Virus record (IMG/VR): IMGVR_UViG_3300048549_001676
DNA length: 64,000 nt
From: an uncultured virus (IMG/VR IMGVR_UViG_3300048549_001676)
Lineage: Duplodnaviria; Heunggongvirae; Uroviricota; Caudoviricetes
Reading direction: 5' to 3' (one strand)
Part shown: positions 31,234-59,894 of the stretch, piece after piece
How positions within the stretch are numbered: position 1 is the first letter of the stretch
Layout of the letters: the number at the start of each line of letters is the position of its first letter
Program-made: the position numbers and the translations under genes
The notes under the pieces: generated by a model
Database searches by the model: none
What the model saw: only the letters and a program-made list of their open reading frames with translations
What the model was told of the DNA's origin: nothing

Positions 31234-31884
31234 TCACTTTCCAAATTCGTAATTAAAATGCTTAATATCATCTGCATAACGTTCTGCAACTTTGTCAACC
31301 ATCCATTGTTCATCATAAGCATCTGTGTACGGAACATGATTACTTTTATTTGTATGAACTATCTTTGGTTGTTGTAAACCAAGTTTATCAAATACAAATT
31401 TCATATCATGTGTAAGATTTTCCACTTTTGCTATATAATCTAACATATTATTTCCATTTCTGTCAAGCACCCAATCAATTTGACGATTTCTTTTTTTGTT
31501 AGGTTCGCAATATTTTTTCAAATACTCTTTAAAATTAGAACACTCAGAATCAATTCTTCTTACTTTCTGGACAAACCAATTACCATCACCCTTCGGAATT
31601 TTAGTTTTAAATTCATTTGCTTTTCTTTTTAAGTAAGAAAATGTAGACAACTTTCTATCCCACGGATTGCGAACAGTTGTGAACTTGAAATAATCATTCC
31701 AATTCCATGTTTCTTCGTCAAAGAATTCTTTCATTTTCTTTGCAGGAATGTGATGATAGCAAATTGTTTTACGAGGAGCACATGATTTTATATCAGAATA
31801 CGGATCAAGCATTTCTCGTACTGAAGAACTTGCAGTTTTGTGTATTGAAATATACACAAATTTGTGCTTATGAGATAATCTCAT
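31234..31884 (-). CDS. sulfotransferase (Sulfotransfer_2/CHST-like)
   Basis: SHKHKFVYISIHKTASSS, VRNPWDRKLS. Confidence 0.9.
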   Translation of the reverse strand: MRLSHKHKFVYISIHKTASSSVREMLDPYSDIKSCAPRKTICYHHIPAKKMKEFFDEETWNWNDYFKFTTVRNPWDRKLSTFSYLKRKANEFKTKIPKGDGNWFVQKVRRIDSECSNFKEYLKKYCEPNKKRNRQIDWVLDRNGNNMLDYIAKVENLTHDMKFVFDKLGLQQPKIVHTNKSNHVPYTDAYDEQWMVDKVAERYADDIKHFNYEFGK

Positions 31885-37973: not shown

Positions 37974-38756
37974 TTACCAATTTAATAACATTTTATATTT
38001 GTTTGGAAGATAGTCATTTTCTCCAATTTTTATTTTTTTCCAATGTTCTATTCCTCTACCAAACAAATCTGCACCTGATTCGATTTTATGTTTTATATAT
38101 TCTACATCAGTGAATTCTTTTTTGTTAAATTCTTGATGACTAAAGTTTTTAATTTTATTTGCTATTTCCTCTGCATTCATAAAATAAGATAAATGCCATC
38201 CACCATTTGGTATATATTTTCTACGTCGTAACTTTGCAGATCTCATTCTATCACATTCATGGTTATATTTTTTACAATACTGGTGATAATTTACGACTTT
38301 TGCAAAATACCAAAATTTTTTGTTTCTGTTTGTAATGCAATAGTAATACATTACTTGTTCAAGATTATACAAGCCGTCTACTATTATTCTTTTATTTTTT
38401 ATTTTTTTAATTGTTTCTGTATCCGGTACTTCATCAACATCTGAAATAAAAATGATGTCATCGTCATTAAGTGTAAGTTGCTCTATACCTCTGTCAATAC
38501 AGTTTCTTTGATGCGTTTCGTTATCCCAAGCATTTTCAGTATTTGGCATATCGTCAACTATAATATGAATTATTTTGTGTAAATACTTTGAATATAAGTT
38601 TTTATTTTTGTCAAAAAATAAATCTTTTTTATTTCCGGCAAATGTAAATGTTGATTCCACTAATACAAAATAATCTACACCATCGTTCAACTCTGCTAAA
38701 CGAAATTCCAGCATTTTTAACTCATTATAAAATGTAAAGCAATCAATTATTTTCAT
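37974..38756 (-). CDS. GT17-family (beta-1,4-GlcNAc transferase-like)
   Basis: IIDCFTFYNEL..LEFRL.EL, ETHQRN, ISDVDEVP, GGWHLSYF...KIKNFSH. Confidence 0.88.
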   Translation of the reverse strand: MKIIDCFTFYNELKMLEFRLAELNDGVDYFVLVESTFTFAGNKKDLFFDKNKNLYSKYLHKIIHIIVDDMPNTENAWDNETHQRNCIDRGIEQLTLNDDDIIFISDVDEVPDTETIKKIKNKRIIVDGLYNLEQVMYYYCITNRNKKFWYFAKVVNYHQYCKKYNHECDRMRSAKLRRRKYIPNGGWHLSYFMNAEEIANKIKNFSHQEFNKKEFTDVEYIKHKIESGADLFGRGIEHWKKIKIGENDYLPNKYKMLLNW

Positions 38757-39724
38757 TTTAAAAACACCTCGTCAAATATCTTCATTACTTTCTCAGGAGT
38801 ATAATCAGAATATGCGTTCCAATCTTTTTTTGCCATTTCATCTTTGTCAAAATTTTGCAAAATAAATTCTAAGTTTTTCTGATTATCATACCATATTGCT
38901 TTATTACCCAACAAATAAACATGACATTTGTCAAAGGTACGTCGTGTCGTTTTTTTATCAGTTGCAATTACTGGTTTATTTTTTGATGAAAACTCAGCAA
39001 TAGCCTGTCCAAATGTCTCCCCATCATCCCTCCCCCATATCATTGCATCACACGTATTTATAAATTCAACTTTTTCGTTTAAGTCTACAATACATGGTAA
39101 ATGAATTATATTTGGCAGTTCCTTACAAAATTTGTTAAAGTTTGCAAATAAAAAATAAATGTCATTTCTTTTTTTTGCAGTATTGTAAACTGCCTGTTGT
39201 GCCATTTTTATACTAAATTGAGTAGGTCCTCCATATCCCCCAAATACTGTAGCATTATCTGGTATGCCGAGTTCACTCCTCATATCCATTTCGTGATAAG
39301 GTAACGATATTATTCTTGGAATTACAGGATACTTACCGTGATTTCCATCAACCCATTTAGCTATGGTACAATAAACATCTCCATGTGGTTCTTTTGCAGT
39401 AAATACACATTGAATACAATTCTTTGCGAAATTACATATCTCATTATCATTTTTTCCATATTTTATATTAAAAAAATATTTTATATTGCCATTAATTAGA
39501 AATTGATCAATTTGAGAAAAATTATCTACACCAATAACTTTGAATCGTGTTTTAAATTTTTCTATTACATCACTATTATTGAATTTACTTTTTTTAGGAT
39601 AAAAAATAATAGATTCGTTATTGAGAATTTTTTCATTATAGTGTGCGTAATTAAACATACCCACGTCCGTTCCTCTCTCTCCGAGATGTCCTGACCAAAA
39701 TCCAACTTTTTTTTGTTCTCCCAT
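38753..39724 (-). CDS. GT-B glycosyltransferase
   Basis: LGERGT...YAHYNEKIL, FGGYGG, FINTCDAMI.GR.DGETFG.AIAEF; start set at MGEQK. Confidence 0.78.
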   Translation of the reverse strand: MGEQKKVGFWSGHLGERGTDVGMFNYAHYNEKILNNESIIFYPKKSKFNNSDVIEKFKTRFKVIGVDNFSQIDQFLINGNIKYFFNIKYGKNDNEICNFAKNCIQCVFTAKEPHGDVYCTIAKWVDGNHGKYPVIPRIISLPYHEMDMRSELGIPDNATVFGGYGGPTQFSIKMAQQAVYNTAKKRNDIYFLFANFNKFCKELPNIIHLPCIVDLNEKVEFINTCDAMIWGRDDGETFGQAIAEFSSKNKPVIATDKKTTRRTFDKCHVYLLGNKAIWYDNQKNLEFILQNFDKDEMAKKDWNAYSDYTPEKVMKIFDEVFLK

Positions 39725-39743
39725 TCGTAATAAATATAAGTTA

Positions 39744-40598
39744 TTATAAGAACTTTCCACGCAAAGCATCTTTGTATGAGGACTTTGGTATTCTTCTCAA
39801 CAAACGATCATATTGCTGAACATCAATGAAGTTTTGTTCTAAGCAGATGCTTTCTAAGCACCCTATACACACCCCTTGCCTTCTTTGGATTGTTCTGATA
39901 TACGAAGATGTATCAAAGAAACTTTCGGCAGTTCCTGCGTCTAACCATGCACTTCCGTTGGGCATTACTTTTACTTTAAGATCACCTCGTTTCAAATACT
40001 CATTATTAACATCCGTAATCTCTAACTCACCTCGGTCAGATGGTTTTAAATTCTTTGAAATGTTTACCACATCATTATCGTAGAAATATAATCCAGTAAC
40101 TGCATAATTGCTTTTAGGTTTCTTTGGTTTTTCTTCTATGCTTAACGCAACGTTGTTTTTATCAAATTCAACAACTCCGTATCTTTCAGGGTCTTCCACA
40201 CGATAAGCAAACACTGTTCCTCCCGTTACTGGAGTTTCAATTTCAAAGAATTTATTCGAAGCATGAAAAAAGTTGTCACCCAAAATCAAACACACAGGAT
40301 CATTTTTAATAAAGTCTTCCGCAAGAATAAATGCTTCTGCAATTCCGTTGCTTTTTTCCTGATGAACATATTCAAATGAACATCCGAACTTTTTTCCATT
40401 ACCGAAAAGTTGTCGGAAAAACTTCAACCCGATGTCGTTAGAGATTATACATATTTCGTTGATACCGAATCTTAATAAACTCGATAACGAATAGTAAATC
40501 ATTGGTTTATCGTAAAGCATAAGCAATTGCTTGCTTGCTACACTCGTTGTTGGATACAAACGTGTACCACTTCCTCCTGCTAATATTATTCCTTTCAT
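39744..40598 (-). CDS. rfbA: glucose-1-phosphate thymidylyltransferase
   Basis: MKGIILAGGSGTRLYP, YDKPMIYY, LILGDN, EEKPKKPKSNYAVTGLYFYD, RGELEITD, AWLDAGT. Confidence 0.95.
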   Translation of the reverse strand: MKGIILAGGSGTRLYPTTSVASKQLLMLYDKPMIYYSLSSLLRFGINEICIISNDIGLKFFRQLFGNGKKFGCSFEYVHQEKSNGIAEAFILAEDFIKNDPVCLILGDNFFHASNKFFEIETPVTGGTVFAYRVEDPERYGVVEFDKNNVALSIEEKPKKPKSNYAVTGLYFYDNDVVNISKNLKPSDRGELEITDVNNEYLKRGDLKVKVMPNGSAWLDAGTAESFFDTSSYIRTIQRRQGVCIGCLESICLEQNFIDVQQYDRLLRRIPKSSYKDALRGKFL

Positions 40599-43963: not shown

Positions 43964-44023
43964 TTATAAAAAAAATGTCCGTTTCATATTCCGTTGAATA
44001 ATCTAAATAATATGTTTTCACCT

Positions 44024-44869
44024 TTACTTTACCTCCACACGAATCCAATCTTCGCAAATTATATCCTCATCACTAAACTTTCTTTTTTTGTGCAAAGGAT
44101 GCCATTCTGTTGGAGCAATCACAATTTTCTCCTCGTTATTATTCAACCACGCACCCCACCAACTGAATGTGGAGTTTGCGATTACATTGTGTTCGCACAT
44201 ACTCATTAAATGAATATCCATATAATCTTTCTCTCCACGAACAAAAGTTACATTGGCATCAAACTCAGACAAATCTAGATTCTCTTCAACCCAGTCAACT
44301 GCATCTGAGAATATTACAATGTTGTTGATCGTCTTATCCATTTCCAAAATTTTGCGAATCGCATTTGGATAGTAAGTGTTCAAATCCTCAAACAAACAAT
44401 AATAAGCAGAACTATATGTGTCGGCATTATCACGACCTTTGCGGATATGAAGTGAGACACTATTTTTTAAAACATCGGCATATTTGCTTTCAAGATATTG
44501 TTTCTCGTCAGGAAGTGGTTCAAACATTTTTTGAATTTCTTTTTTGTATTCCGCAAAATATTTTTCACTTTGACGAAATCCACGCATCTGAACATTTTTG
44601 TTTGGATAAAATGGTATTTCCTGATAACGGAATCCCAATGACTTCGGTTCTTCCAAAAACTCTTCAATTTCAAAATCTACTTCATCATTAAATGGGATAT
44701 TTGGAAACACCTTCAACAAAGACTCTCTTCCTTTGTCGTGATTTCTTGATATTTGATTGCTTTTGACAATAGGTGTTAGATTGTGTTTCCACGCATAAGC
44801 AAACAATGCAGAAACGCAAAACATTTGATTTGCAAGTAGTCCTTTTAAATGTATGTTAATGTAGTTCAT
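44024..44869 (-). CDS. GT11 alpha-1,2-fucosyltransferase-like
   Basis: GLLANQMF, GFRQSEKYF, SLHIRKG, IFSD, LMSMCEHNVIANSTFSWWGAWL. Confidence 0.9.
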   Translation of the reverse strand: MNYINIHLKGLLANQMFCVSALFAYAWKHNLTPIVKSNQISRNHDKGRESLLKVFPNIPFNDEVDFEIEEFLEEPKSLGFRYQEIPFYPNKNVQMRGFRQSEKYFAEYKKEIQKMFEPLPDEKQYLESKYADVLKNSVSLHIRKGRDNADTYSSAYYCLFEDLNTYYPNAIRKILEMDKTINNIVIFSDAVDWVEENLDLSEFDANVTFVRGEKDYMDIHLMSMCEHNVIANSTFSWWGAWLNNNEEKIVIAPTEWHPLHKKRKFSDEDIICEDWIRVEVK

Positions 44870-44881
44870 TTCCTATTTTCA

Positions 44882-44965
44882 TTAATTGCATTTGTGTGAT
44901 CTATCGGGACGAGAATCAAGATTGATGCAAAATATTTTATCAAAATAATTAAATGGATTTTTCAT
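44882..44965 (-). pseudogene. 27-codon remnant of a GT25 gene N-terminus
   Basis: MKNPFNYFDKIFCINLDSRPDRSHKCN*; same start as the four GT25 genes at 52-56 kb; ATGA-coupled to upstream gene. Confidence 0.75.
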
Positions 44966-45732
44966 CTATAATGGTTCTCCCCAATTTCGGTGTAATGGCC
45001 GATAAGTTCTTGTTTGTTCATTTGCTTGAAAACGGCAATCTTTTCCACCATTTCTTTCCATTGTTTTTTGTCGTTAATTCGTGCAAGTCTTCTATGTGCT
45101 TTGGTGTCGTGATCAAGATGATACATATCGTAAGGTGACCTTCCAATCTTTAAATCAAACTTATCCACCTTGCTTCGCATTAATTCATCTTCAGGACACC
45201 AAGAACCAATTGACGGTTCCCACCCATACACTTGATAAAAACCTTTTCTAGACATGATACAAACTCCTCCAGCACCATTGTCAGCAACTCTTGGACGATT
45301 TCTTCCTAACCAAGATTCGTCAAGGTTGTCACCTGCAATCACCTTCTTTGTTCCGTCACGTGAAATGTTAAGAAATTTTTGTGAAGGAACAAAGAAATCA
45401 TATCCATTTACAAGTTTCTCAAAGTTCTTTAGCAAATCTTCATGCAACATAATATCATTATCTGAGAATATAAGGTAATCTCCATTAGTTACTTTTGCTC
45501 CTTCGTTGAATCCATAACCACGACTATAATCAAATGGTTCAGGTGTTTTTCTAAGTATATGTCGTATTGATACATCTCCGCCGATGTCCGACAAATCTGA
45601 CTCGGTATTCTGTTCAACAATAGTTATTTTTGCACTTGGAAGCAATTTCTGATATCGTGCTATAATAAACTTAAGATTCCTATCACGTGAATCATGTGTA
45701 TTTGAATGTCCTATGATTACGTCAATTTTCAT
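44962..45732 (-). CDS. GT2/GT7-like glycosyltransferase
   Basis: R.RNL, IVEQ, FNEGA, IFSDND, GGV...F....G...WCPEDE, YHLDH. Confidence 0.8.
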   Translation of the reverse strand: MKIDVIIGHSNTHDSRDRNLKFIIARYQKLLPSAKITIVEQNTESDLSDIGGDVSIRHILRKTPEPFDYSRGYGFNEGAKVTNGDYLIFSDNDIMLHEDLLKNFEKLVNGYDFFVPSQKFLNISRDGTKKVIAGDNLDESWLGRNRPRVADNGAGGVCIMSRKGFYQVYGWEPSIGSWCPEDELMRSKVDKFDLKIGRSPYDMYHLDHDTKAHRRLARINDKKQWKEMVEKIAVFKQMNKQELIGHYTEIGENHYR

Positions 45733-46574
45733 AAATTGCTTTTCTTTTCAATGTTAGTATCCAACGAGTCTTGCAATAACTCTACTTCATCTGTTAACCC
45801 AAGTGTAGTTTGAAAAATCTTACAATCAAAGTCTATTTGAATATTGCCATAGTTTTTACCAAATAATATTTGGAAATGCTTTTGGTCGGCTTGTGGTATT
45901 TTTAGTTTTGATGTACAATACTTTTTCATAAGATTTGAATTAATATTATGATAGTCTTTCATAAGATTTAAGTAAAAGTCTACCTCTGCAATAAATAATC
46001 CACTGTTTAAAAAACAAAATTTACTTTTATTTACATTAAAATCACTTCTCAAAATTAATTTATCATATATACTTCCTAAATCAGAAGGATATAATAATTG
46101 CTCGGCGTTAAATAACAATTTACAATCAAAATCTTTTTCAAAAGTCTCAACTATTCTGTTTGGATGTTTTACCAAAAAAACATCACTGCAATCCCACCCG
46201 ATTACATATTTCAAAGATGGATTGTTTAGCAAAAAGTTTTCCATAGCAAACGGTTTAAAATTAAGCAACATCCTTCGGTATTCTTGACTCTTCTTTGGTG
46301 ATACTCGTTCAATATCATGGTTTTGGTAATAGATATTATTTACACTTATTCCAAAAAATTCGGCCGATTCCTCAATCATCGTTTTTGTTTGGTAACCGTG
46401 CATAAAAAATGCTAATGCCACGTCACTTCTTAAGTCTTCTTTTGGAGGTTTAGTTAATTTAAAATTGTTTTTTACCTCGGCCCATAGGTTATATCCAACT
46501 TTGTTTTGTTCCGATCCCCCATTTAAATGGAACACACATGGTTCTGTGTTTGTGTGTTTGTTTATAATTTTCAT
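45729..46574 (-). CDS. PLOD/LH3-type GT-A glycosyltransferase, circularly permuted
   Basis: DCSDV, LLFNAE..YP, FLNSGLFI, DQ, IDFDCKIFQT; HLNG motif at the N-terminus. Confidence 0.7.
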   Translation of the reverse strand: MKIINKHTNTEPCVFHLNGGSEQNKVGYNLWAEVKNNFKLTKPPKEDLRSDVALAFFMHGYQTKTMIEESAEFFGISVNNIYYQNHDIERVSPKKSQEYRRMLLNFKPFAMENFLLNNPSLKYVIGWDCSDVFLVKHPNRIVETFEKDFDCKLLFNAEQLLYPSDLGSIYDKLILRSDFNVNKSKFCFLNSGLFIAEVDFYLNLMKDYHNINSNLMKKYCTSKLKIPQADQKHFQILFGKNYGNIQIDFDCKIFQTTLGLTDEVELLQDSLDTNIEKKSNL

Positions 46575-47542
46575 AATGGTAAAAATTTATTTATTTTATG
46601 TTGTTTATATGCATTAATAAAGTCTTCTGTATTTTCTTCAAATCTTTTATATTGTCTTTCTAGAAATTCATCACCCCACTTCATCCCCCAATTTTCAAAA
46701 TTAGGATTTCTACTTCCTTCAAATGTAGTCATTGTTTCTGGCCAGCTGATATTTGGGCAAGTTTCTCTAACATAATTGAATATCATGTCATCATTTTGCC
46801 AGTGAAAATTTTTTGTTTTCCAATTCCAAGTTTCATCATCATCTACCTCAACTTCAAGAGATTTTAATAATCTTCTGCATAAAATCCAATAATAGTGCAT
46901 CGTAGGATGATTATTGCAAATACCAAGTTGAGTTTCTTGCCAAGTTTCTATTACATCAGACATTCCAATAATTTCGTTTCCAAGATTTACTTGCTCAGTT
47001 TGTCTTCTTTTTAATTCAGCAATATCATCTTTTGCTACTTTTAATGTAAAGTCAGTTGTTTCTTGTGAATGCTCGGTTTCTAACCAATGCTTTGCTTCTT
47101 CTGGTGATTTATTGTTTGCAAATAAATAAAATAACATTGCTCTGAAATTATATGATCGTTTTGTACCTTTTTCATTTTTAAGATTTGCAATTGGTTCACT
47201 TGTAAGGTAACAAGGTGCATATCCTCTAAAAAAATAATTAAACAACCAAATACTTCTTCCATTTGTATGTTGCTTCAAATAGTCACTTGAAAAATGTTTA
47301 CCACGAAAATTTTCTGAAATTTTTTGGTGAATAAAAATGTCCACATCTTTTAAATTGGTTATCATTCTACGCAAATCTCGTTTAATTTGCATATTTGGAG
47401 CATACCAAGTAGGACATTTTCTTCCTCCTGATTTAAACCCAACGAGTTTATATTTTTCAGTGAATTTTGGATTTGCCCACAACATCCACCCAAGAACCTT
47501 GGTATGACAATTTCCGTATAAATATACAAGTTTTTTGCTCAT
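46571..47542 (-). CDS. WcbI-family polysaccharide biosynthesis protein
   Basis: LYGNCH, DIFIHQ, FFRGY.P, EL.RR, NHPT motifs. Confidence 0.72.
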   Translation of the reverse strand: MSKKLVYLYGNCHTKVLGWMLWANPKFTEKYKLVGFKSGGRKCPTWYAPNMQIKRDLRRMITNLKDVDIFIHQKISENFRGKHFSSDYLKQHTNGRSIWLFNYFFRGYAPCYLTSEPIANLKNEKGTKRSYNFRAMLFYLFANNKSPEEAKHWLETEHSQETTDFTLKVAKDDIAELKRRQTEQVNLGNEIIGMSDVIETWQETQLGICNNHPTMHYYWILCRRLLKSLEVEVDDDETWNWKTKNFHWQNDDMIFNYVRETCPNISWPETMTTFEGSRNPNFENWGMKWGDEFLERQYKRFEENTEDFINAYKQHKINKFLPL

Positions 47543-48456
47543 GAATAAAATCCTTTCACCTTTTCAAGTTTAATTCCACCCCACAAAGCAGCCAAAAAAC
47601 TGAACGACGATGTATCGGTTTGAATGATTTTTTTAGTTTTCATTAAAGTCAAAATTTCGATTAACGCATCAATCACTCCTTGTTCAGAACTGGTAGACTG
47701 ATAATCTTCTTTGTATCCGAAGTCGTAGGTAAATAAGTCCTGACCATATTTTTCCATATAAGTTTTTTTAACCTCTGCTTCGTCACTACACAAATAAACT
47801 AAATTTTTCTTGGATATCTCTCTCTCAATGATTTCATCAAATTTACTCAAGTCAACCTGTGGTCGTGTGGAGTAAGAACCATACATTTTCAAATGAGTTT
47901 CATTATCGAAATCAGAACGTCTGATGTGAACTCCCACAACATCTCTAGAAAATGATTGAACTCTATTCATTATGCTTGACTTCACTTCCAGTGAATTCAA
48001 TGCCCTTCTTAGTTGTTCACAATATTTAGAAATTATTTTATTTTCGGCAATCATGTCAAACGAAATGTCTTCACATTCAGAACAAGGTGGGTATACATTT
48101 TTTGTGCATCTGACATTAAAAAACTCAACATCATGTTCATTTCCAATATACTCAATGTTCTTTCCACGAAATCTTCGTTTCCACATATTACCTGTACAAA
48201 ACTTTTCGTAACTAACTTCGTTTTCTTTTATATAAAATCTATAATCCTCTATATCTTTCAAAAAGAAATCATTATCAAAAAGTTTTTCAAATTTACACTC
48301 ACAATGACTTAACTTACGTATAGCTGCAGTTCCCCCTGTATGCCAGATCATCTCAAACTTTCTATTGGTGTTTTTTGCATAGACAAGGGCCGAAGCAATA
48401 GTCAACAACCGATTTCCAAGACCACACCCAACTCCGTATATTACAAGTTTTTTCAC
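47539..48456 (-). CDS. fucosyltransferase-like GT-B protein
   Basis: GLGNRL, GVHIRRSD, YLCSD, ALIE...L...SSFS. Confidence 0.78.
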   Translation of the reverse strand: MKKLVIYGVGCGLGNRLLTIASALVYAKNTNRKFEMIWHTGGTAAIRKLSHCECKFEKLFDNDFFLKDIEDYRFYIKENEVSYEKFCTGNMWKRRFRGKNIEYIGNEHDVEFFNVRCTKNVYPPCSECEDISFDMIAENKIISKYCEQLRRALNSLEVKSSIMNRVQSFSRDVVGVHIRRSDFDNETHLKMYGSYSTRPQVDLSKFDEIIEREISKKNLVYLCSDEAEVKKTYMEKYGQDLFTYDFGYKEDYQSTSSEQGVIDALIEILTLMKTKKIIQTDTSSFSFLAALWGGIKLEKVKGFYS

Positions 48457-49113: not shown

Positions 49114-50114
49114 TAAATCACATCCTTCATTTTATCCAAAGTTTCGTTGCCACCGGGTCTCTGACTATCCACGTGCTTCATTTCTGAATTCAATAACAAA
49201 GCAACATGAGCAAATCCACTTGCGTTATGTAACAAATAATCGCACTTGCTCAACAAATACATTTCAGCAATTGCATCTTCTCCGTTTTGAGCTGCTTTTG
49301 CTCCATCGTCACAAAGATAAGTCGGCATCATAGCATCACCCTTTGTATTATCACCACTTTTGCCAACATCCTGCTCTTCCTGACGAAACGTATCATACTC
49401 AACGATAGCATCATTAAATTCGTTTTTAACGATATTAAACAACTTCGCATCATCACTTGCAACAAACACTTTTCCTTCATCTCCACACTTGTTAATAAAT
49501 ATTCGTATGCAGTTAATATAATTCTGTATATCGAACCTCTTTCTCCATCTTTCCGCATTATTCACAAGTGCATCTGTTCCACGAATGTGAACACCAAGAA
49601 CTTTGTTTGCGTCTGCTAGATTTTCTGTGAAAAAGTCGTTGATTTTATCATTGAGATACATTCTGAGTTTGAAGTATTTGTTGATGATTACATTTGCTTT
49701 TTCACGATGACCATCTTCATAAACCTCAGGAATCAAATGTGGAGGAACAATCATAGTGTGTCCCATTTTTCTATCTCCGTAATGACAACACATTTTGTTA
49801 CGATTACTCAACTTAACGAACCTACTATTATTAAGTTTCTTGGGTTCTGTGTTTTCGTATGCGTTTGCTATTTCCAATTTATTTTGTTCTGATATGCACG
49901 AAGTATCCACAGTTTCTACAACAGGACGAAAATAATATTCCCAAACATTGTCTTTGTTTTGATGACCTTCTGGATTATAATAAACGCATTGATTCTTGAA
50001 GTAAACGATTGGTGTTCCAAGTTCTTCTTTTTCACAACGATTTAGTGCGTTGATTACCTGAAAGAATAAACTTGCAAGTCCAACATCACGTTCTGTTATT
50101 ATGTATTGTTTCAT
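49113..50114 (-). CDS. NodZ/GT23-like fucosyltransferase
   Basis: NVWEYYFRP, LGVHIRGTD, VFVASD, GEDAIAEMYLLSKCD. Confidence 0.8.
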   Translation of the reverse strand: MKQYIITERDVGLASLFFQVINALNRCEKEELGTPIVYFKNQCVYYNPEGHQNKDNVWEYYFRPVVETVDTSCISEQNKLEIANAYENTEPKKLNNSRFVKLSNRNKMCCHYGDRKMGHTMIVPPHLIPEVYEDGHREKANVIINKYFKLRMYLNDKINDFFTENLADANKVLGVHIRGTDALVNNAERWRKRFDIQNYINCIRIFINKCGDEGKVFVASDDAKLFNIVKNEFNDAIVEYDTFRQEEQDVGKSGDNTKGDAMMPTYLCDDGAKAAQNGEDAIAEMYLLSKCDYLLHNASGFAHVALLLNSEMKHVDSQRPGGNETLDKMKDVI

Positions 50115-51562
50115 TCTTTACTCTCCAAAAATGCTTCATGCATTCTTCCTATCATTACATCCTCAACTGCGAACGGATGAAATCCTTTCTCGTTTTTTAC
50201 ATCATGTTGTTGCACAATAGTTTTACACATTTCCGATGTTGCAATAAACTTTGCAAATTCATAATTTATACGGTAGCACTTTCCACAATAATACCATGTT
50301 CCGTCTTTCAACCAATATGGAATATCAAGCATTGTTTCAATTCCCTTTTGCTTTGACCATGCATTAAAGTCTCTAATTAAAAACTCTCTACCGTTAGAAC
50401 CAACATAAGGAACAAACTTTCTTTTATATATTGATCGTTCTACTCTATCAATACCACAAATCTTTTTACGAGTTCTCTCTCCTACATGATTATATGTTAA
50501 AAAGTTACAATCAAGTTTTACCAATCTATTAAAACGAAGATTTTGTATGCACCACTGAATCATTTCGTAAGTTTTTATATGAAGTTTATCGTATCGTTCG
50601 TCTCCATATAAATGTAGTTGTGCGTCATGAAACTTTGTTTCATCAGAACCTCTATAATATTCAAGAATTCCTATACTATTATTTTCTTTTAATTTTTTAT
50701 AGAAATCAGAGTTTTTAAGATGTTCAAGATGTTCTTTATCCTTTTCACAGGTATTAATACAAATCAATGTATCACAATCTGTTGTCGATCCTGTGGTTTT
50801 TATATCTGTTACAATTTCAATTTCACTTTCTTCCCGTTCATCTTTTAACACAACTTCAATATCATCTTCGTTGACCAAATCGTCTACGATATTTTTACAT
50901 TCCAATACATCAAGAATTGGTGTTCTTGGTGTTGATATTGTTTTTCGTTCTCCAAATTTGTAATCGTATCTATCAATATCCTTTTTATGCAAATCACGTA
51001 CCTGTTCAATTACTTTATCGGAATATAAATGAGCATAATCTCTAAATGGTTTTTCTTTAATGTTAGTTTCAATTCCAATTACATCTAAAATATATTTAAA
51101 ATCTTCCGCAAGATTTTCAAACTTGCCAACAAAATCAAGTTCTTCATCAATCATATTTTCATATATCGCATTTTTTGTATGAGTTGGTTTTATCAAGTTA
51201 TCAGCATCTTCAAATCTGTAATCAAATTCAAGTGTTACTTCGCCTTTTTGAAATCTTTCAATGTATCCTGAAATGTCAAGTTCTCCGTTTTTAATTTTTA
51301 CATCCATCATTCCGTGCTTCGCAAGTGAAACCATCCTAGACCAAGGATTTCTAACAAATGAAAACTTAAAATAGTCATCCCAATACTCTGCATATTCTTT
51401 TTTTGCCTGACTTGCAATTAAATGCTTTCTTTTTCTAAACCATGTACGTGGTTTACTATCTTGTAGTTTCCACCAATCTCTACCAGTAATTACACGTTCT
51501 ACCCACGTACCCGCAGTACTTGGTAAGTGAACGAAGATACATTTATATTCGTGACTAATCAT
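50111..51562 (-). CDS. sulfotransferase-like domain fused to a GT31-like galactosyltransferase domain
   Basis: MISHEYKCIFVHLPSTAGT, VRNPWSRMVS, DFVGKFENL; C-terminal YDKLHIKT, LVKLDC, GKCY, EDVMIG. Confidence 0.78.
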   Translation of the reverse strand: MISHEYKCIFVHLPSTAGTWVERVITGRDWWKLQDSKPRTWFRKRKHLIASQAKKEYAEYWDDYFKFSFVRNPWSRMVSLAKHGMMDVKIKNGELDISGYIERFQKGEVTLEFDYRFEDADNLIKPTHTKNAIYENMIDEELDFVGKFENLAEDFKYILDVIGIETNIKEKPFRDYAHLYSDKVIEQVRDLHKKDIDRYDYKFGERKTISTPRTPILDVLECKNIVDDLVNEDDIEVVLKDEREESEIEIVTDIKTTGSTTDCDTLICINTCEKDKEHLEHLKNSDFYKKLKENNSIGILEYYRGSDETKFHDAQLHLYGDERYDKLHIKTYEMIQWCIQNLRFNRLVKLDCNFLTYNHVGERTRKKICGIDRVERSIYKRKFVPYVGSNGREFLIRDFNAWSKQKGIETMLDIPYWLKDGTWYYCGKCYRINYEFAKFIATSEMCKTIVQQHDVKNEKGFHPFAVEDVMIGRMHEAFLESKE

Positions 51563-52298
51563 AAATCCAAAATCCTTTCTTCTTAAGTTGAGTTTCGCAA
51601 TCAGCATTTTTTCTCATATGAGGATGATACACATAACAATAATCAGTTACATAACCATATCTTTCTATGATACTATTTCCTAATACTTTTGCGTTAAATG
51701 AATTTGAACGAAGTTCTGAACTTTCATCAATTAGTTCCACAATATTTTCTTTTGAAATACGTGAACACATATACCGATTGATTTGATCTTGATCATCAAA
51801 CTCTTTATTTTCATCCAGTATGCTGATAAACATTGCTTGTATTGATGCAGTTGGTGTTAAATACATCCATCCCGGACAAACACAAAATCCCCATTTTTCG
51901 TGTACTTCTTTTGGATATCCTCCCAAATCTCTTGAAAATACCGCATCGTAATTTTTGGAAATCAAATGAAATGGATTTTTCAACCAAGCAGTATCCAAGT
52001 CAGAATGAATAATTCTGCAACCACAATTTAAAAATCTTGATAATTGCTCGGTTCTCCACCTCCATCCTTTTTTTGATTGTCGTGGTAAAGTTCCACGAAT
52101 ATAAATTGTGTTGATGTTGTTATCTAATAAAAATTTTTCGGTTTCACGATCTGCCGAAACAATTACATAATTTTCTATGTTTAATTTTTTTAGGTATGCT
52201 ACCCAATTTAATGCAATTCGTTTGTATAATTTGTTACAAAACGATACAACGAGCAATTCATTTTTTGCATATTTATTTACTTCTTCTTTTAACACCAT
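51555..52298 (-). CDS. nucleotide-diphospho-sugar transferase (GT77-like)
   Basis: LNWV, IHSDLDTAWLKNP, VCPGW, DDQDQIN. Confidence 0.8.
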   Translation of the reverse strand: MVLKEEVNKYAKNELLVVSFCNKLYKRIALNWVAYLKKLNIENYVIVSADRETEKFLLDNNINTIYIRGTLPRQSKKGWRWRTEQLSRFLNCGCRIIHSDLDTAWLKNPFHLISKNYDAVFSRDLGGYPKEVHEKWGFCVCPGWMYLTPTASIQAMFISILDENKEFDDQDQINRYMCSRISKENIVELIDESSELRSNSFNAKVLGNSIIERYGYVTDYCYVYHPHMRKNADCETQLKKKGFWIYD

Positions 52299-52358: not shown

Positions 52359-53633
52359 TTACTTAATGAACCAGTGGTCATTTTTTTGCATTTCTTCTAC
52401 TTTATCCCAACCATTACCAATTCCGTTGTAGTGAATCATAGTTGGACTGAAATTTTCTTTTTTTCTAAAATATTCGTAACTACAAAACTCTTTTTCAGAC
52501 AATTCTTTTACTTTAATTGTTAAATCTTGAGATAGTTTTTCGTTCAGATATTCGTTCTCGGTTTTTTTGCTAGAACCAAAGTTAAATAATTCCAACATTT
52601 TCTTGGTTGGATTTACGCAATAAAATCCTGTATCAAATGAACCATCTGATTTACGTGGAATAATTATATCATAATCTATATAATCAGAAACTATCAAGTC
52701 CCAAGGATTCTTTAAATAAACCACATCCAAATCAGAAATTATACAAGTTTTTCCATTTGAAATAAAATCAAATACTTTTGAAAGTTTTTCACGTGTTACC
52801 TTTTTAAATAAATTTGGATTTGAATTTCTATCAATTGGTTTTTGACCCAAATCAATGATATTCATAAATCCCTCGGATGCAATCATTCCTGTTTTATCCA
52901 ACGATGCAACAATATTTCTTGATAAAACTCTTTGCGAACGGTCTCGTCTGTTTGCAACTGCCACAAATTCTATTTTCATTTTAAATTTGTCTACAATCGG
53001 TTCAACTAATTTTCTCCACATAATTGCGGAATATTGTTTGCGTGTTTGTATATTTTCGTCTTCTTGAATAACGAATCTTGGATGAGTTGCATACGCATCA
53101 AATGCAAGACCAAACTTTCTTCCTCGTTTATATACTTGATCAATTGCTATTTTATTTTCCATCAATTTATCAGCAACTTCTTTACAATGCTTTCCATTGA
53201 TTGCATATGCGTGTGCCTGGCACATAGAAGCATTAACAAGATGCTCATTTTTTACACCAAATACATTATGGGGAATTCCTCCCATATAAAACAACTTCCA
53301 ATCTAAATCGTTTAAAGATTTAATGGACCTTGACATTTTTTCCAAGTCAGTATCAATAAAATGTATATCACTTTCAAAAATAAAAACATTTTTAAGATTT
53401 TGTTTGTGTGCATCTGAAATTATTTTCCAATGACAATAATCAGTTTTGCTCCATTCTGATATATCACCGAATGTCTCTTTTAACCAACCAGAATCAATGA
53501 CCTCGTCAAATCTTTCAACTCTATCAAGAATTCCAATGCGTTCAAATTCTTTTTGAACTTTAATCCATCTTTCTGGTTCGTGTTGACCACAAATACAAAT
53601 AATCTTTTCAAAATAATCAAATGGATTTTTCAT
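52359..53633 (-). CDS. GT25-like domain fused to a GT77-like domain
   Basis: NPFDYFEKIICI, FIFESD, AHAYAIN; C-terminal ISDLDVVYLKNP, DTGFY, IHYN. Confidence 0.78.
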   Translation of the reverse strand: MKNPFDYFEKIICICGQHEPERWIKVQKEFERIGILDRVERFDEVIDSGWLKETFGDISEWSKTDYCHWKIISDAHKQNLKNVFIFESDIHFIDTDLEKMSRSIKSLNDLDWKLFYMGGIPHNVFGVKNEHLVNASMCQAHAYAINGKHCKEVADKLMENKIAIDQVYKRGRKFGLAFDAYATHPRFVIQEDENIQTRKQYSAIMWRKLVEPIVDKFKMKIEFVAVANRRDRSQRVLSRNIVASLDKTGMIASEGFMNIIDLGQKPIDRNSNPNLFKKVTREKLSKVFDFISNGKTCIISDLDVVYLKNPWDLIVSDYIDYDIIIPRKSDGSFDTGFYCVNPTKKMLELFNFGSSKKTENEYLNEKLSQDLTIKVKELSEKEFCSYEYFRKKENFSPTMIHYNGIGNGWDKVEEMQKNDHWFIK

Positions 53634-54298
53634 TGAATATCAGTTCCAAGAGTATCATTCTGAGTTACTATCTCTGGTTTTACAAAATACTTCATAATCT
53701 TCCTGTTGCTTGCGTAGTATTTGTCCACATGACCTTCACGACCACACACTCTGTGGTTAAATGGGTCAATATTTTTAATTAGATAATCAAATATAGTTGA
53801 GTTGTATGCAAGTGCAGTTGTAAGTTGTATACCACGATGTTTTTTTGCAACAACCCGAGATAAGTGGTCACCGTGCTTTATTTCCATTCTGCTTGCCACT
53901 CGGTGTAAATGATATCCTAAATAAAAGTTGTGCCATCTGTGATTTTGAAGTTCTGATATTGAGTTTGATAAGTTTTCTCTCCAGTTTTCAAGTACCACAA
54001 AGTCATCTTCAAAAACCATAACATTTTTTAGATTTTGTTCTTTTGCTAGTGATATAATTGCCTTATGACTTTCTGCACAACCCACCGCACCTCTTAAGGG
54101 ATATGCATATTTACCTTTTCCCCACGGAACAGAACGGTTCCATCTTTCATCGTGTGTTGGTTTAATCGCAGAAAATCTTTTTACTCTATCATAAATTCCA
54201 AGAATCTTAAACTGCTCACGGGAATGTTCCCAACGATCAGTTCGTTCGTCCAAATTGATACAATAAATTTCATCAAAAAAATCAAATGGATTATTCAT
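53630..54298 (-). CDS. GT25 glycosyltransferase
   Basis: YCINLDERTDRW, GAVGCAESH, VFEDD, FYLG. Confidence 0.88.
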   Translation of the reverse strand: MNNPFDFFDEIYCINLDERTDRWEHSREQFKILGIYDRVKRFSAIKPTHDERWNRSVPWGKGKYAYPLRGAVGCAESHKAIISLAKEQNLKNVMVFEDDFVVLENWRENLSNSISELQNHRWHNFYLGYHLHRVASRMEIKHGDHLSRVVAKKHRGIQLTTALAYNSTIFDYLIKNIDPFNHRVCGREGHVDKYYASNRKIMKYFVKPEIVTQNDTLGTDIQ

Positions 54299-54990
54299 TT
54301 CGTTCCTTGTATATCACTAAAAAATTGTCTATCCTGTTGAAAGCAACTTGGGTTTGTGAGATATTTATTTATTTTTGCATTTCGTCTGTAATAAAAATCT
54401 GCAAAACCTCTAGCACCGAATTTGTGGCGGTGAAATGGATTCATATCACTTATTATATAATCAAAAATGTTGGAATTAACAGCATATGCGTGTGCGTGGC
54501 ATACTCCCCTCTGTGGAGAATGACCAAAATGATCCAATAAGCAATCACCACAATCTCGTATCAATCGTTTTTTTCCATACACGAAATCCCAACCAAGAAA
54601 AAATATGTTCCAATCAAAATTTTTCAATTCATTAATTGCACAGATAAGATTTTCTTTCCAGTTATTCACTATATAAAAATCATCTTCAAACACCATGACA
54701 TTACTTAGATTTTGTTTTTTTGCCAACTTAATAACTTCACGATGACTTAACGAACCACCAACTGCACCCGGAACTGGAAATCTATAATTTGGTTTTCGGT
54801 ATCCACCAAAATGCAAATCTGCTAATTTATTTCTAGTTTCAATATCGGCACATTTTACAGCAGAAAATCTTTTTACTCTATTTGCAATTCCTAAGATCTC
54901 AAATTGCTCCACGCAATGATTCCACCTATCTGTTCTTTCATCAAGGTTTATGCAGTAAATTTCATCAAAAAAATCAAATGGATTATTCAT
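54295..54990 (-). CDS. GT25 glycosyltransferase
   Basis: YCINLDERTDRW, GAVGGSLSH, VFEDD, AHAYAVN. Confidence 0.88.
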   Translation of the reverse strand: MNNPFDFFDEIYCINLDERTDRWNHCVEQFEILGIANRVKRFSAVKCADIETRNKLADLHFGGYRKPNYRFPVPGAVGGSLSHREVIKLAKKQNLSNVMVFEDDFYIVNNWKENLICAINELKNFDWNIFFLGWDFVYGKKRLIRDCGDCLLDHFGHSPQRGVCHAHAYAVNSNIFDYIISDMNPFHRHKFGARGFADFYYRRNAKINKYLTNPSCFQQDRQFFSDIQGTK

Positions 54991-55609
54991 CGTTCATGTT
55001 ATCTAAAATAAATTTTGCAACATTTTTACCTAAAAGTTCACGACCTACTTCATTAAAGTGGCAATTATTTTCAGACCTTGGATGCATATATAACCGAGGG
55101 TAATCTTCCTGTGCTTTTACGAATGAATATAAATCATTTGAAGGAACTTCCATTTCATCTGTTATTTTTTTTGCAATTTCATTAAGAATTACTACATCAA
55201 GATCATTTCTCATTCCAGCATTTTTTGGATTTGGGGTTGTATTAGAAAATATTGGTTTTACTTGAAGTTTTCGTATAAATTCAATTTCTTCACGAAGTTC
55301 TTTTTCGTATACCTCAAAGTCTTCATCAGTTGCTCTTTGGTGATCAGGGTCATGGCCTTTATTTGGTAGTTTAATACTATGCAATCCAAAATTGAAATGA
55401 ACCATTTCTGCCTTAATTTTGCGACCTCCATATCTGCGTTTCTTTTCAAGTGCTTTGTCAAGGAATCTAAGTTGCTTCCATTGACAAGAAACCCACTTAT
55501 CCGATTCAACTGCTTCTATTTCATGCTTTGCAAGTTCTTCCTTTGTGTAAGGAAAATAATGTCTTGCTATTGAATCACCAATTACTATTACTTTATTATC
55601 AAATTCCAT
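54983..55609 (-). CDS. SGNH/GDSL hydrolase (O-acetyl esterase/transferase-like)
   Basis: VIGDSI, HFNFGLH, NTTP, N...NDLY, NCHF. Confidence 0.8.
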   Translation of the reverse strand: MEFDNKVIVIGDSIARHYFPYTKEELAKHEIEAVESDKWVSCQWKQLRFLDKALEKKRRYGGRKIKAEMVHFNFGLHSIKLPNKGHDPDHQRATDEDFEVYEKELREEIEFIRKLQVKPIFSNTTPNPKNAGMRNDLDVVILNEIAKKITDEMEVPSNDLYSFVKAQEDYPRLYMHPRSENNCHFNEVGRELLGKNVAKFILDNMNDE

Positions 55610-55653
55610 TTTTTATCTCCATATTTGTTGTTATATTATAAATATAATATAAA

Positions 55654-56340
55654 TTATTTATTATCATTTGGATTTAATCTTAAAGCACGATTTGTACGTG
55701 TTCTCGATAAATCACTTACTGAATTATATTGTGTTGTAAATGTTGGCACACACGCATAAGTTTTTGGTTTCAAAACATCCTGATAATATCTGTCAAGATG
55801 ACTATCGTGTTTTTCCACCAATAAATCCCAAATGTTATTGTCATAGTCTGTTGCCACTCTTTCAAAAATAGTGGAGTTAACCGCAAACGATTGAGCCCAT
55901 CCAACTTTTCTACATTCCATTATATAATCAAATTCAGAATTATAGTCACCACTCCATTTGTTTCTTAAATGATTATATTTTGGTCGTGGGTTCATTCTTC
56001 GTTCAAGGCCACCAAGGTAAAAGAATTCCCAATCGGTTTTATTTAAATTTTCAATTGCTTTATTTAACTTTTTATCATCGTATCTTTTCAGAAATGCTAC
56101 ATCATCTTCAAATATCAATACATTTTTAAGTTTTCGTTCATACGCAAGTTTAATGACACTTAAATGACTATCATAGCAACCCTTCTTGGGATTTTCTTTG
56201 TTATCAAACGCATTGAATTTAATTACTCTGTTCGATATTCCAATTTTATCAAATTCAGATTGACACTGTTTCCATCTATCTGCTCTTCTTTCAAGATTGA
56301 TGCAATATATTTCATCAAAAAAATCAAATGGTGATTTCAT
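55654..56340 (-). CDS. GT25 glycosyltransferase
   Basis: YCINLERRADRW, GCYDSH, IFEDD, FFYLG. Confidence 0.88.
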   Translation of the reverse strand: MKSPFDFFDEIYCINLERRADRWKQCQSEFDKIGISNRVIKFNAFDNKENPKKGCYDSHLSVIKLAYERKLKNVLIFEDDVAFLKRYDDKKLNKAIENLNKTDWEFFYLGGLERRMNPRPKYNHLRNKWSGDYNSEFDYIMECRKVGWAQSFAVNSTIFERVATDYDNNIWDLLVEKHDSHLDRYYQDVLKPKTYACVPTFTTQYNSVSDLSRTRTNRALRLNPNDNK

Positions 56341-57074
56341 TACCAATTCCTACCACCTTCTATTTTTAGATCACTAATTGCTCCATAATCAGTACCAGTA
56401 TTCACTATGTATCTTTTTTCTTTACGATTTTGCCTCGCAAGTTCTCTGTTTCTAAGATTTGAACGTTTTGGACGATGAAATGAACTTTCATGTTCAATAA
56501 AGTTTGAATCGTGTTTTTCAAATTTAACATCTTTTAAATTGAGATGTAACTGAATTCTTTGTTTAAAATCTCGTTCTTCCCAACCCCAACCTTGAAATGT
56601 TTCGTCATAACCACGCACTTCCAAGAAATATTTTTTCATAATTGCAATTCTACCCCAATTAGAAGACGCAGGATTCCCTTTGTTTACTCGTCTAATATTA
56701 TTCAATATTATGTTTTCATTTTCATTGAACTTTTCATTTAGATATTCAGCATAATTTTCTGATATAAAATTATCTCCATCAACCCAACAAACAATTTCAC
56801 CGGATGCATTTTTTGCAGTAACATTTTTTGTTCTTGCCATTTCAAAGTGTGGTGCTTGTTTCGTGTGAAGATATTTTACTACACCGTCATCAATATACCC
56901 TTTTAAATTCTGCTGAACCCACTCGTTCATTCCGTCTTGTGAATTCCAATTCAATAATACAAATTCAATGTCTCCATAATCAATATTATTTTCTAAGTTT
57001 GAAATAAATGTCTCTTTAATGTGGTGAAGTCGTTTGGTACACGACGTGCAAAATGATATTTTATATTTTTTCAT
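56340..57074 (-). CDS. GT2/GT7-like glycosyltransferase (paralog of 21736-22473)
   Basis: ISFCTSC, EFVLLNWNSQDG, KN, WVDGDN, GYDE.FQGWGWEE.DF. Confidence 0.85.
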   Translation of the reverse strand: MKKYKISFCTSCTKRLHHIKETFISNLENNIDYGDIEFVLLNWNSQDGMNEWVQQNLKGYIDDGVVKYLHTKQAPHFEMARTKNVTAKNASGEIVCWVDGDNFISENYAEYLNEKFNENENIILNNIRRVNKGNPASSNWGRIAIMKKYFLEVRGYDETFQGWGWEERDFKQRIQLHLNLKDVKFEKHDSNFIEHESSFHRPKRSNLRNRELARQNRKEKRYIVNTGTDYGAISDLKIEGGRNW

Positions 57075-59122: not shown

Positions 59123-59884
59123 TTATTTTTCAATTTTTAAATTATCTTTTTGTAAACCATTCAATGACTGAAAAATTTTACAATAATTATCAATTTGCAT
59201 TCTTGGATAATATTTTCTATATATTTGCTGAAATTGACCCTGATCAGTCTTATCTTTTAATAAACGTGTTGATATAATATCTGAAAAAATTTCTTTAAAA
59301 AAATCAACTTTGCAAATAAACAAACCAGAATTTAAATACATAAACGGAGTTTGATTTCTTATAATATTTTGGTGTTCTGGCCAACGCCAGTATATTGGAT
59401 TAGCCGATCCAGTGAGATGTCTTCCGGCCGGAAACACCTTATTCTCTGCATTAAATAACCAATCACACTCAAACTCATTTTCAAACCTTTCAACGATACG
59501 ATTTGGGTGTTCTGTAAAAAACACATCAACATCCCAACCAACGACATATTTTGTTGTAATTTGATTTAAATTTTCATGCAACAAATGTGGTTTTATCGTC
59601 CTGATTTCACCGTGCGAAGGTGGATCGAAGTTTTTTCCGATATTCAAATAACGCAAGTTAAATCTTTGAAGATTTTCGTCTAATGTACATATAAACTTGG
59701 ATTCGTCACCCCATTTTGCAAAACACAAAGTTACATCTTCTCTTAATTTTTCCGATGAATCCCAATTCCATGTGTTCATTGTTTCACCAGCAAACAAATT
59801 GTAACCGATCTTACATTTTTTAAACCCACCATTTAAGTGAAATGCAATTGGATATGAATTCGTTATATTGTTTTTTATTCTCAT
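59123..59884 (-). CDS. PLOD/LH3-type GT-A glycosyltransferase, circularly permuted
   Basis: WDVDV, LFNAE..FP, YLNSGLFI, TDQ, IDNYCKIFQSLNG; HLNG at the N-terminus; start set at MRIKNN. Confidence 0.7.
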   Translation of the reverse strand: MRIKNNITNSYPIAFHLNGGFKKCKIGYNLFAGETMNTWNWDSSEKLREDVTLCFAKWGDESKFICTLDENLQRFNLRYLNIGKNFDPPSHGEIRTIKPHLLHENLNQITTKYVVGWDVDVFFTEHPNRIVERFENEFECDWLFNAENKVFPAGRHLTGSANPIYWRWPEHQNIIRNQTPFMYLNSGLFICKVDFFKEIFSDIISTRLLKDKTDQGQFQQIYRKYYPRMQIDNYCKIFQSLNGLQKDNLKIEK

Positions 59885-59894
59885 GTTTCTTTCT

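Follow-up and report, generated by a model that had tools for sequence, protein, structure and literature searches.

A predicted circularly permuted PLOD/LH3-type glycosyltransferase encoded in a glycan-synthesis island of an uncultured virus

The window analyzed here is a 64,000-nucleotide stretch of DNA from IMG/VR record IMGVR_UViG_3300048549_001676, assigned to an uncultured virus of the class Caudoviricetes. It is coded entirely on the minus strand, with a G+C content of 28 to 39% in 2-kb windows. Between ~21 kb and 64 kb, it carries a glycan-synthesis island that holds two related open reading frames (ORFs), referred to as copy 1 and copy 2. Copy 1 has exactly the position assigned to it in an earlier note on this DNA; it lies on the minus strand, encodes a 281-residue protein, starts with ATG, and shares a 4-nucleotide overlap with each flanking ORF. 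In all likelihood, this protein is a single-domain glycosyltransferase (GT) of the PLOD/LH3 family with the GT-A fold and a circularly permuted chain, a predicted Mn2+- and UDP-sugar-dependent enzyme of the island pathway. Natural circular permutation is known from other protein families. The features of both copies are listed in Table 1.

Table 1. Features of the two permuted GT_PLOD copies in the window (LH3 numbering as explained in the text; pLDDT, predicted local distance difference test)
Feature	Coordinates	Strand	Basis
Copy 1, whole ORF, predicted circularly permuted PLOD/LH3-type GT-A glycosyltransferase, 281 residues	45729..46574	-	Pfam, profile, model
Residues 1-41, relocated strand-strand-helix unit, homologous to LH3 ~238-275	46452..46574	-	alignments; pLDDT 95-97
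HLNG, residues 16-19; H16 = LH3 His253 (Mn2+ ligand), N18 = LH3 Asn255	46518..46529	-	alignment; H16 invariant in 104 sequences
Residues 42-51 (KPPKEDLRSD), probable linker from former C-terminal helix to former N-terminal strand β1	46422..46451	-	secondary structure, alignment ranges
Residues 52-267, GT-A core, co-linear with LH3 33-236	45774..46421	-	profile and structure alignment
Residues 79-100, low-confidence loop (pLDDT ~64-65), probably in place of the LH3 "glycoloop"	46275..46340	-	model; correspondence from alignment
DCSD, residues 128-131, DxxD metal motif = LH3 Asp112, Asp115	46182..46193	-	D128 invariant, D131 in at least 90% of sequences
NAE, residues 156-158; E158 = LH3 Glu141	46101..46109	-	alignment
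LNSG, residues 189-192; N190 = LH3 Asn165	45999..46010	-	alignment
DQ, residues 230-231 = LH3 Asp191, Gln192; Asp190 position = Ala229	45882..45887	-	alignment
IFQ, residues 253-255	45810..45818	-	alignment
VELL, residues 264-267, last strand, new C-terminal edge; = LH3 "EVVLKF"	45774..45785	-	alignment, model
Copy 2, 253 residues from ATG, same permuted order	59123..59884	-	99% identical P0007 starts at same ATG

The core motifs of copy 1 follow one another in the order DCSD, NAE, LNSG, DQ, and IFQ. The HLNG motif precedes all of them and lies, as the earlier note had it, at the N terminus, which reads MKIINKHTNTEPCVFHLNGG (residues 2 to 20 are KIINKHTNTEPCVFHLNGG). After IFQ come TTLGLTDEVELL, up to residue 267, and the 14 last residues, QDSLDTNIEKKSNL; the chain had been described as ending just after EVELL, and it does stop near that point but only after these 14 additional residues. 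The LH3 motif order given in the earlier note agrees with the LH3 chains in the printed profile alignments. In LH3, the segment EVVLKF directly precedes the strand whose counterpart opens copy 1. The co-linear order β1...DxxD...NAE...LNSG...DQ...IFQ...HxNG is not found in copy 1, where the HxNG unit precedes strand β1.

The Pfam family GT_PLOD (PF25342) matches residues 124 to 275 of copy 1 with profile positions 74 to 207 of 246 (E value of 3.1e-8 and 33.6 bits, with a cutoff of 27), and the last ~40 profile positions are unmatched at the C terminus. Pfam searches at E values of up to 10 give a single stretch for copy 1, and the N-terminal unit is unreported. The same profile covers positions 6 to 242 in the canonical-order relative P0118 and ends at positions 188 to 207 in the permuted members of the family, at or near their own C termini. 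Single-sequence phmmer comparison of copy 1 with the PDB sequences yields nothing meaningful (best E value, 0.28), so that a profile was needed for PDB matches. This profile, A1, is an alignment of 104 proteins with the same order of parts. Its best PDB match is the mimivirus protein R699 (E value of 1.1e-25), and human LH3 chains are found with E values of 4.9e-24 to 2.9e-22. Each printed alignment, with LH3 as well as with R699, consists of two stretches in rotated order: A1 positions 42/46 to 237 align with LH3 chain positions 11/12 to 206/209, and A1 positions 3 to 25/26 align with LH3 chain positions 215/218 to 238/240. Counting along the printed 8one alignment, with an offset of 22 from 8zgc, gives LH3 D112, D115, E141, W145, N165, D190(S), D191, Q192, and H253, which are the residues named in the LH3 papers.

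Taken alone, the second stretches are weak (i-Evalues of 2.9 to 11 in a database of 177,635 PDB sequences). Together with the single Pfam stretch, they would fit a co-linear PLOD-type GT that lost its C terminus and carries an unrelated N-terminal extension, with HxNG present by chance. The unit was therefore tested separately, using one hidden Markov model (HMM) of the first 45 residues of A1 (unit HMM) and another of the rest (core HMM). The unit HMM matches 46 of 47 canonical-order relatives, all except P0192, near their C-terminal ends with 13.9 to 41.0 bits (E values of 1e-12 to 3e-4). Among 111 decoys, which comprise 64 further ORFs of the window and 47 reversed sequences, the highest score is 8.9 bits. 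In hhalign comparisons, positions 5 to 37 of the unit align with positions 206 to 239 of a 256-position alignment of 36 canonical sequences (probability of 98.3% and E value of 1.8e-14), and the two cores align over positions 52 to 232 and 13 to 189 (probability of 99.95% and E value of 1.5e-37). The invariant residues of the permuted set (A1/A2), namely, N5, T8, P12, H16, D128, D131, N190, G192, D248, F254, and Q255, and those of the canonical set (A4), namely, D69, D72, N126, G128, D180, F186, Q187, N211, T216, P218, H222, and G225, correspond across the two orders. Within the unit, N5, T8, P12, H16, and G19 are the counterparts of canonical N211, T214/T216, P218, H222, and G225. The unit HMM, the hhalign result, and the matched residues contradict a chance origin of HxNG, which is thus highly improbable.

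Copy 1 and its canonical relatives therefore differ by two swapped homologous segments with no leftover duplicate, the pattern of a natural permutant. The earlier note had proposed a chain cut between IFQ and the HxNG motif and rejoined; every sequence-level test of this proposal is positive, and at this level, the permutation is close to certain. The metal-binding His, which was said to be kept, aligns with LH3 His253 as H16 and is predicted to retain its role.

The permuted order is widespread. A scan of 1.84 billion representative proteins finds 237 matches at E values of ≤0.001, 28 at ≤1e-10, and 6 at ≤1e-30. Among the 156 proteins found with copy 1 as the query, the unit precedes the core in 115, follows it in 6, and is absent (at an E value of ≤0.01) from 34, and one is a 46-residue fragment; co-linear alignment of the homologues with PLOD, which the earlier note regarded as telling against a permutation, is thus not what is found. 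The widened set of 199 proteins adds the two window copies and 41 proteins from a search seeded with canonical P0118. The unit is N-terminal in 117 of the 199, C-terminal in 46, and missing from 35; one protein has no core, and none has a unit at both ends. Nineteen of the 35 unit-less proteins are N-truncated fragments, and 11 start with a shortened His strand (e.g., MSSVAFHFNG or MIIHNNGPS); the other 5 lack the His strand by pattern, although one of these, P0125, visibly starts with one. ESM Atlas leads for copy 1 are clusters of Uroviricota and Pseudomonadota with GT_PLOD.

An error of gene calling or assembly, such as joined fragments or a wrong start, could in principle mimic such an arrangement. 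However, all seven proteins from one search for relatives (38 to 96% identical) share the Met start and the motif of copy 1, and the permuted order is seen in 29 of 47 ORFs from independent metagenome loci. The 4-nucleotide overlaps with the neighboring ORFs and the second copy in the window point the same way, and nothing was found in favor of an artifact. With shared starts, independent loci, and a second copy all contradicting it, this explanation is almost certainly wrong.

Copy 2, a paralogue with 39% identity to copy 1, justifies the label "copy 1" used in the earlier note. It is listed as an ORF at 59123-59917(-) with a TTG start at 59917; its likely start is the ATG at 59884. From this ATG, the N terminus reads MRIKNNITNSYPIAFHLNGG and contains AFHLNGG, as in copy 1, with HLNG at 59828-59839. 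The Pfam GT_PLOD score exceeds the cutoff whether the ORF is read from the TTG (38.1 bits) or from the ATG (34.9 bits). Copies 1 and 2 are not sister sequences but belong to separate subclades, each with a 96 to 99% identical counterpart elsewhere (P0001 and P0007). Copy 2 (at 59519-59539), P0007, and P0013 have GWDVDVF, with a DxD motif that lacks one residue relative to the DxxD of the family (GWDCSDVF in copy 1). PHROGs has no family for copy 1, and NCBIfam has none for copy 1, copy 2, the permuted P0029, or P0118; copy 2 shows a weak match, via the GT core, to phrog_61, "2OG-Fe(II) oxygenase" (2OG, 2-oxoglutarate).

The AlphaFold2 model of copy 1, built with A1, has a pLDDT of 90.1 and a predicted template-modeling score (pTM) of 0.89, with residues 1 to 50 at 95 to 97; the weak regions are residues ~81 to 100 and ~221 to 230 and the tail. 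The top Foldseek matches are LH3 structures, 6wfv (E value of 5.2e-5, ~215 columns, TMq of 0.46) and 6fx*, followed by R699. VIA-align pairs model residues 46/47 to 271 with LH3 33/34 to 236 (Z scores of 16.0 to 16.8; root mean square deviations of 2.6 to 3.2; 181 to 193 residues aligned) and the model with R699 residues 9 to 201 (Z score of 16.8); the next family, LARGE1, has a Z score of 12.1. As modeled, copy 1 would thus adopt the GT-A fold, and the solved structures closest to it are those of LH3 and R699. The sequential aligner leaves unpaired the first 45 residues of the model and residues 237 to 278 of LH3. In the control model of canonical P0118 (pLDDT of 91.0), residues 1 to 245/250 align with LH3 33/35 to 278/286, through the His253 unit (Z scores of 26 to 27.5; 218 to 231 residues aligned).

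The secondary-structure strings of the permuted and canonical models are identical in sequence and rotated relative to each other. The canonical tail consists of strands at 186 to 188 (IFQ), 202 to 204, 209 to 211, and 220 to 222 (IFH) and a helix at 231 to 237. In copy 1, the strands at 2 to 5 and 14 to 16 (VFH) and the helical residues 20 to 41 of the unit come first and are followed by the core, including strands at 254 to 256 (IFQ) and 264 to 267. This rotation places the cut in the turn between the LH3 strands EVVLKF and RVRIRN, and residues 42 to 51 would join the old termini. The high pLDDT of residues 1 to 50, the rotated strand order, and the complementary unpaired segments provide indirect support for the same three-dimensional arrangement as in the canonical domain. 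In BFVD, a fold search finds no full-length match (best TMq of 0.51 over ~210 columns). Structures of the GT6 family (e.g., 1g93 and 3sxe) align to the permuted model from residues 4 to 6 (chain positions 83 to 96 onward; Z scores of 10.5 to 11.0) and to the canonical model only from chain positions 113 to 126; in GT6, the N-terminal segment may occupy the place of the relocated unit.

A permutation that is real in sequence might also be accommodated in a domain-swapped oligomer, where each N-terminal unit would complete the active site not of its own core but of a neighboring subunit. A hairpin at the domain edge contains the new termini, a geometry that can allow swapping, although nothing points to it directly. 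The monomer model, by contrast, places residues 1 to 50 with the confidence given above, and its 10-residue linker is short and confidently modeled. Domain swapping is accordingly improbable, and a unit that folds back onto the core of its own chain is the preferred arrangement.

In two studies of LH3, Asp112, Asp115, and His253 are given as the Mn2+ ligands and the loop Gly72-Gly87 as flexible (PMC6082870), while E141 is described as essential and N165, D190, D191, Q192, W145, and N255 as functionally important, with loss of glucosyltransferase activity in the D190A and D190S variants (PMC10342707). In the alignments, the predicted metal ligands D128, D131, and H16 are invariant or present in at least 90% of sequences, and E158, N190, D230, Q231, and N18 take the places of LH3 E141, N165, D191, Q192, and N255. 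Judging from these residues, copy 1 is likely to be catalytically competent.

Some features of copy 1 weigh against an LH3-like enzyme. The position of Asp190 in the poly-Asp helix is taken by Ala229, that of the UDP-stacking Tyr114 by Ser130, and that of the gate residue Trp145 by Tyr162, so that donor preference may differ from that of LH3. In addition, the loop that probably corresponds to the LH3 glycoloop is modeled with low confidence. The same three replacements, as well as the DxD of copy 2 in place of DxxD, would also suit a catalytically dead or repurposed GT-A domain that, for example, only binds sugar nucleotides or glycans. This alternative is quite improbable, given that 104 sequences show no or almost no variation at the metal ligands and at the positions equivalent to E141, N165, D191, and Q192 and that two diverged paralogues each have 96 to 99% identical counterparts in other samples.

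An active permuted enzyme could work as follows. In LH3, R699, and canonical microbial relatives, the strand-strand-helix unit that closes the domain carries the third Mn2+ ligand, the His of HxNG, and the neighboring Asn. In copy 1, the same unit forms the first 41 residues and would be connected by a linker of ~10 residues to the former first strand, and the chain would stop one strand past IFQ, at what is a hairpin turn in LH3. With the unit in front and the core behind, the active site would be built from both ends of the chain, with H16 and N18 contributed by the N-terminal unit and D128, D131, E158, N190, D230, and Q231 contributed by the core. By analogy with LH3 and R699, the protein may bind Mn2+ and a UDP-hexose and transfer the sugar with retention of configuration. 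It would catalyze one step in the glycan pathway of the island, probably the extension of a sugar that the nearby GT25-type enzymes have attached; Mn2+-dependent transfer of hexose from a UDP-sugar onto such a sugar is the most likely activity, and the acceptor that bears it may be a protein or a polysaccharide.

The nearest solved structure to copy 1 is the GT domain of LH3/PLOD3 (PDB 6FXK/6FXM/6FXR and 6WFV; PF25342). The two share the GT-A fold, the DxxD, NAE, LNSG, DQ, and IFQ motifs, and a unit of the form N..T.P..H.NG with equivalents of His253 and Asn255. They differ in the place of the His-bearing unit, last in LH3 and first in copy 1, and in the residues at the Asp190, Tyr114, and Trp145 positions (Ala, Ser, and Tyr in copy 1); in addition, copy 1 lacks the accessory (AC) and lysyl-hydroxylase domains of LH3 and is only ~20% identical to it. 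R699 of Acanthamoeba polyphaga mimivirus (PDB 9DYT/9DZS/9E92) is a viral enzyme and the best PDB profile match, aligning in two rotated stretches; unlike copy 1, it is arranged in the canonical order and includes a second (AC) domain. The R699 preprint describes it as a collagen galactosylhydroxylysyl glucosyltransferase with demonstrated activity on galactosylhydroxylysine (bioRxiv 10.1101/2022.05.07.491030). Canonical single-domain GT_PLOD proteins of microbes and viruses (e.g., P0118, P0104, and P0084; ~240 to 260 residues) come up in the same searches and resemble copy 1 in size, invariant residues, and the lack of extra domains but have the unit at the C terminus.

In a maximum-likelihood tree built from the core alone, 116 permuted and 10 canonical rows are split at one branch with a Shimodaira-Hasegawa-like approximate likelihood ratio test (SH-aLRT) support of 99. 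Under looser filtering, which admits 117 permuted and 42 canonical rows, two changes of order are required, of which well-supported branches force only one; one of the two is the long-branch join of P0104 and P0122, which is flagged as suspect. Sampling of the canonical proteins is biased, as 41 proteins, 40 of them with canonical order, come from one seeded search. The permuted order may have a single origin. The structures of LARGE1, UGGT, GT6, and PBCV-1 A64R align co-linearly with the model of canonical P0118, and because these other GT-A families do so, we infer that the canonical order is ancestral.

The permuted order may have arisen by duplication or fusion, with both ends lost afterward. 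A search for longer fused or tandem intermediates found none, which is weak evidence. Adjacent paralogues with a 4-nucleotide overlap, such as L104:3979-4818 and L104:4815-5663 and others in L095, L100, and L101, belong to a GT_PLOD subclass of ~280 residues; their N-terminal parts score below the unit-HMM threshold, and they lie 2 to 3 kb from a full permuted copy. A duplication-fusion route to permutation would start from tandem gene pairs like these. L098:3131-6445 encodes a 1,104-residue protein with GT2 (in two stretches), an FkbM methyltransferase, a second methyltransferase, and a C-terminal permuted GT_PLOD. As the unit there spans residues 866 to 907 and the core extends to residue 1096, the permuted domain also occurs as a module of larger proteins.

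Megablast comparison of window positions 44000-48000 with GenBank phages gives no match. Searches of the phages by tblastn with copy 1 and P0029 find only canonical-type multidomain ORFs of cyanophages and one ORF of a Roseobacter phage, none of which spans at least 80% of the query. Scans of species-representative prokaryote genomes for short exact patterns (from A2 and P0029) reveal no relative, which is weak evidence of absence. In metagenomes, relatives are located on contigs that reach 358 to 374 kb.

The island around copy 1 encodes GTs of the GT2, GT8/Nucleotid_trans, GT11, and GT17 families, three GT25 enzymes, a NodZ/FUT8-like protein, and Gly_transf_sug, as well as an FkbM methyltransferase, a pyruvyl transferase, a WcbI-like protein, and RmlA-, RmlB-, and RmlD-like enzymes. 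Neighboring GT25-like enzymes are encoded at 53630-56346. The island also includes five Sulfotransfer_2 ORFs (28918-29580, 31234-31884, 50111-51607, 61457-62035, and 62695-63351). Upstream of the island, at 7637-10475, are CysN-, CysD-, and CysC-like genes for the synthesis of 3'-phosphoadenosine-5'-phosphosulfate; together with the five sulfotransferase ORFs, they imply that the glycan is heavily sulfated. Within the window, many of the GT genes and sulfotransferase genes are paralogues. ORF 38753-39769(-), a 338-residue protein without a Pfam or PHROG family, is the best decoy of the unit HMM, with its 8.9 bits at residues 212 to 231; it is possibly an unrecognized GT with a similar His strand.

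Similar islands are found in the loci of close relatives of copy 1 (L083 and L092). All 11 close-relative loci of at least 5 kb have one to three GT25-like ORFs no farther than 6.6 kb away, and in 4 of the 11, a GT25-like ORF ends 36 to 37 bp upstream; four shorter loci of close relatives have no GT25-like ORF. The 13 loci with more distant permuted relatives likewise contain no GT25-like ORF. The two of these that were inspected, L104 and L117, look bacterial, with genes for ornithine cyclodeaminase and an ExbB-like protein and, in L117, proline dehydrogenase. The GT25 neighborhood thus probably reflects one inherited island among close relatives rather than independent evidence of a functional link.

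Independent support for a GT25/GT_PLOD partnership is provided by phage fusions. Phage-type ORFs of 580 to 660 residues fuse GT25 with a canonical GT_PLOD (L005:5293-7275, L013:5071-7038, and L020:5188-7044), and in L005 and L013, a 2OG-Fe(II) oxygenase follows at the C terminus, which unites hydroxylase-, GT25-, and PLOD-GT-type domains in a single chain. These fusions belong to the same GT_PLOD family as copy 1 but have the canonical order and several domains, and they show 21 to 36% identity over the copy 1 core; they couple GT_PLOD physically to GT25, whereas in the window, the GT25 genes adjoin the copies. A 1,591-residue fusion, L108:7083-11858, adds an OGFOD2-like domain. About 60 of 79 viral loci have an ORF of fusion size whose central part is the GT core, and homologues of the fusions in the GenBank cyanophages S-8S55, S-8S53, S-PRM1, and S-CAM9 are annotated as "2OG-Fe(II) oxygenase" or hypothetical.

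A conceivable target of collagen-type glycosylation is encoded at 14962-20034(-). This 1,690-residue collagen-repeat protein combines a Laminin_G_3 domain with a Peptidase_S74 intramolecular-chaperone domain, matches phage tail-fiber PHROGs, and contains five G-x-y tracts with 59 triplets, 12 of them with Lys at y. A short repeat in its C-terminal part is also present in ORFs 12490-14916 and 10626-11225. Any link of copy 1 to collagen is speculative. The specific proposal that the permuted PLOD-type enzymes and the adjacent GT25 install collagen-type glucosyl-galactose on the G-x-K triplets of this fiber protein, 26 kb away, or of a similar structural protein is rather unlikely to hold. An HMM built from the C termini of 42 phage fusions detects no lysyl hydroxylase or 2OG-oxygenase in the 64-kb window (best score, 3.4 bits).

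Elsewhere in the window, the first 6 kb differ from the rest in carrying genes for small membrane proteins (DoxX, rhomboid, VanZ, and glycine zipper), and the single tRNA gene, tRNA-Met (CAT), is located at 6229-6304(-). The early-promoter motif of mimivirus, AAAATTGA, is not enriched in the window, with 19 occurrences against 24.9 expected.

A full-text literature search, which excluded subscription-only papers and ~1.7 million PubMed Central articles, did not bring up a permuted enzyme of this kind, whether PLOD-type or GT-A, and the string "permut" is absent from the available part of the R699 preprint (bioRxiv 10.1101/2022.05.07.491030). Because their chains are rearranged, the permuted proteins are covered by Pfam GT_PLOD only in part; with a match that stops at positions ~188 to 207 of 246 and an unreported N-terminal unit, automated annotation could take them for truncated proteins.

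The GT domain of LH3/PLOD is medically relevant and structurally unusual among GT-A enzymes, with the third metal ligand and Asn255 located on a terminal strand-strand-helix unit. More than 100 related protein clusters from environmental DNA share the rearranged order, indicating that the fold tolerates the move of this unit to the other end of the chain. The permutation marks a place where the chain can be cut, which would be useful in the engineering of split or repermuted enzymes. The recurrent pairing with GT25, as neighbors here and as fusions in phages, suggests that marine viruses and microbes make wide use of collagen-type two-step glycosylation chemistry. If the proposed collagen link were true, an uncultured marine virus or small-genome microbe would have its own collagen-glycosylation pathway based on a rearranged enzyme, and the permuted clade would represent an unrecognized, widespread branch of the collagen-type glycosyltransferases.

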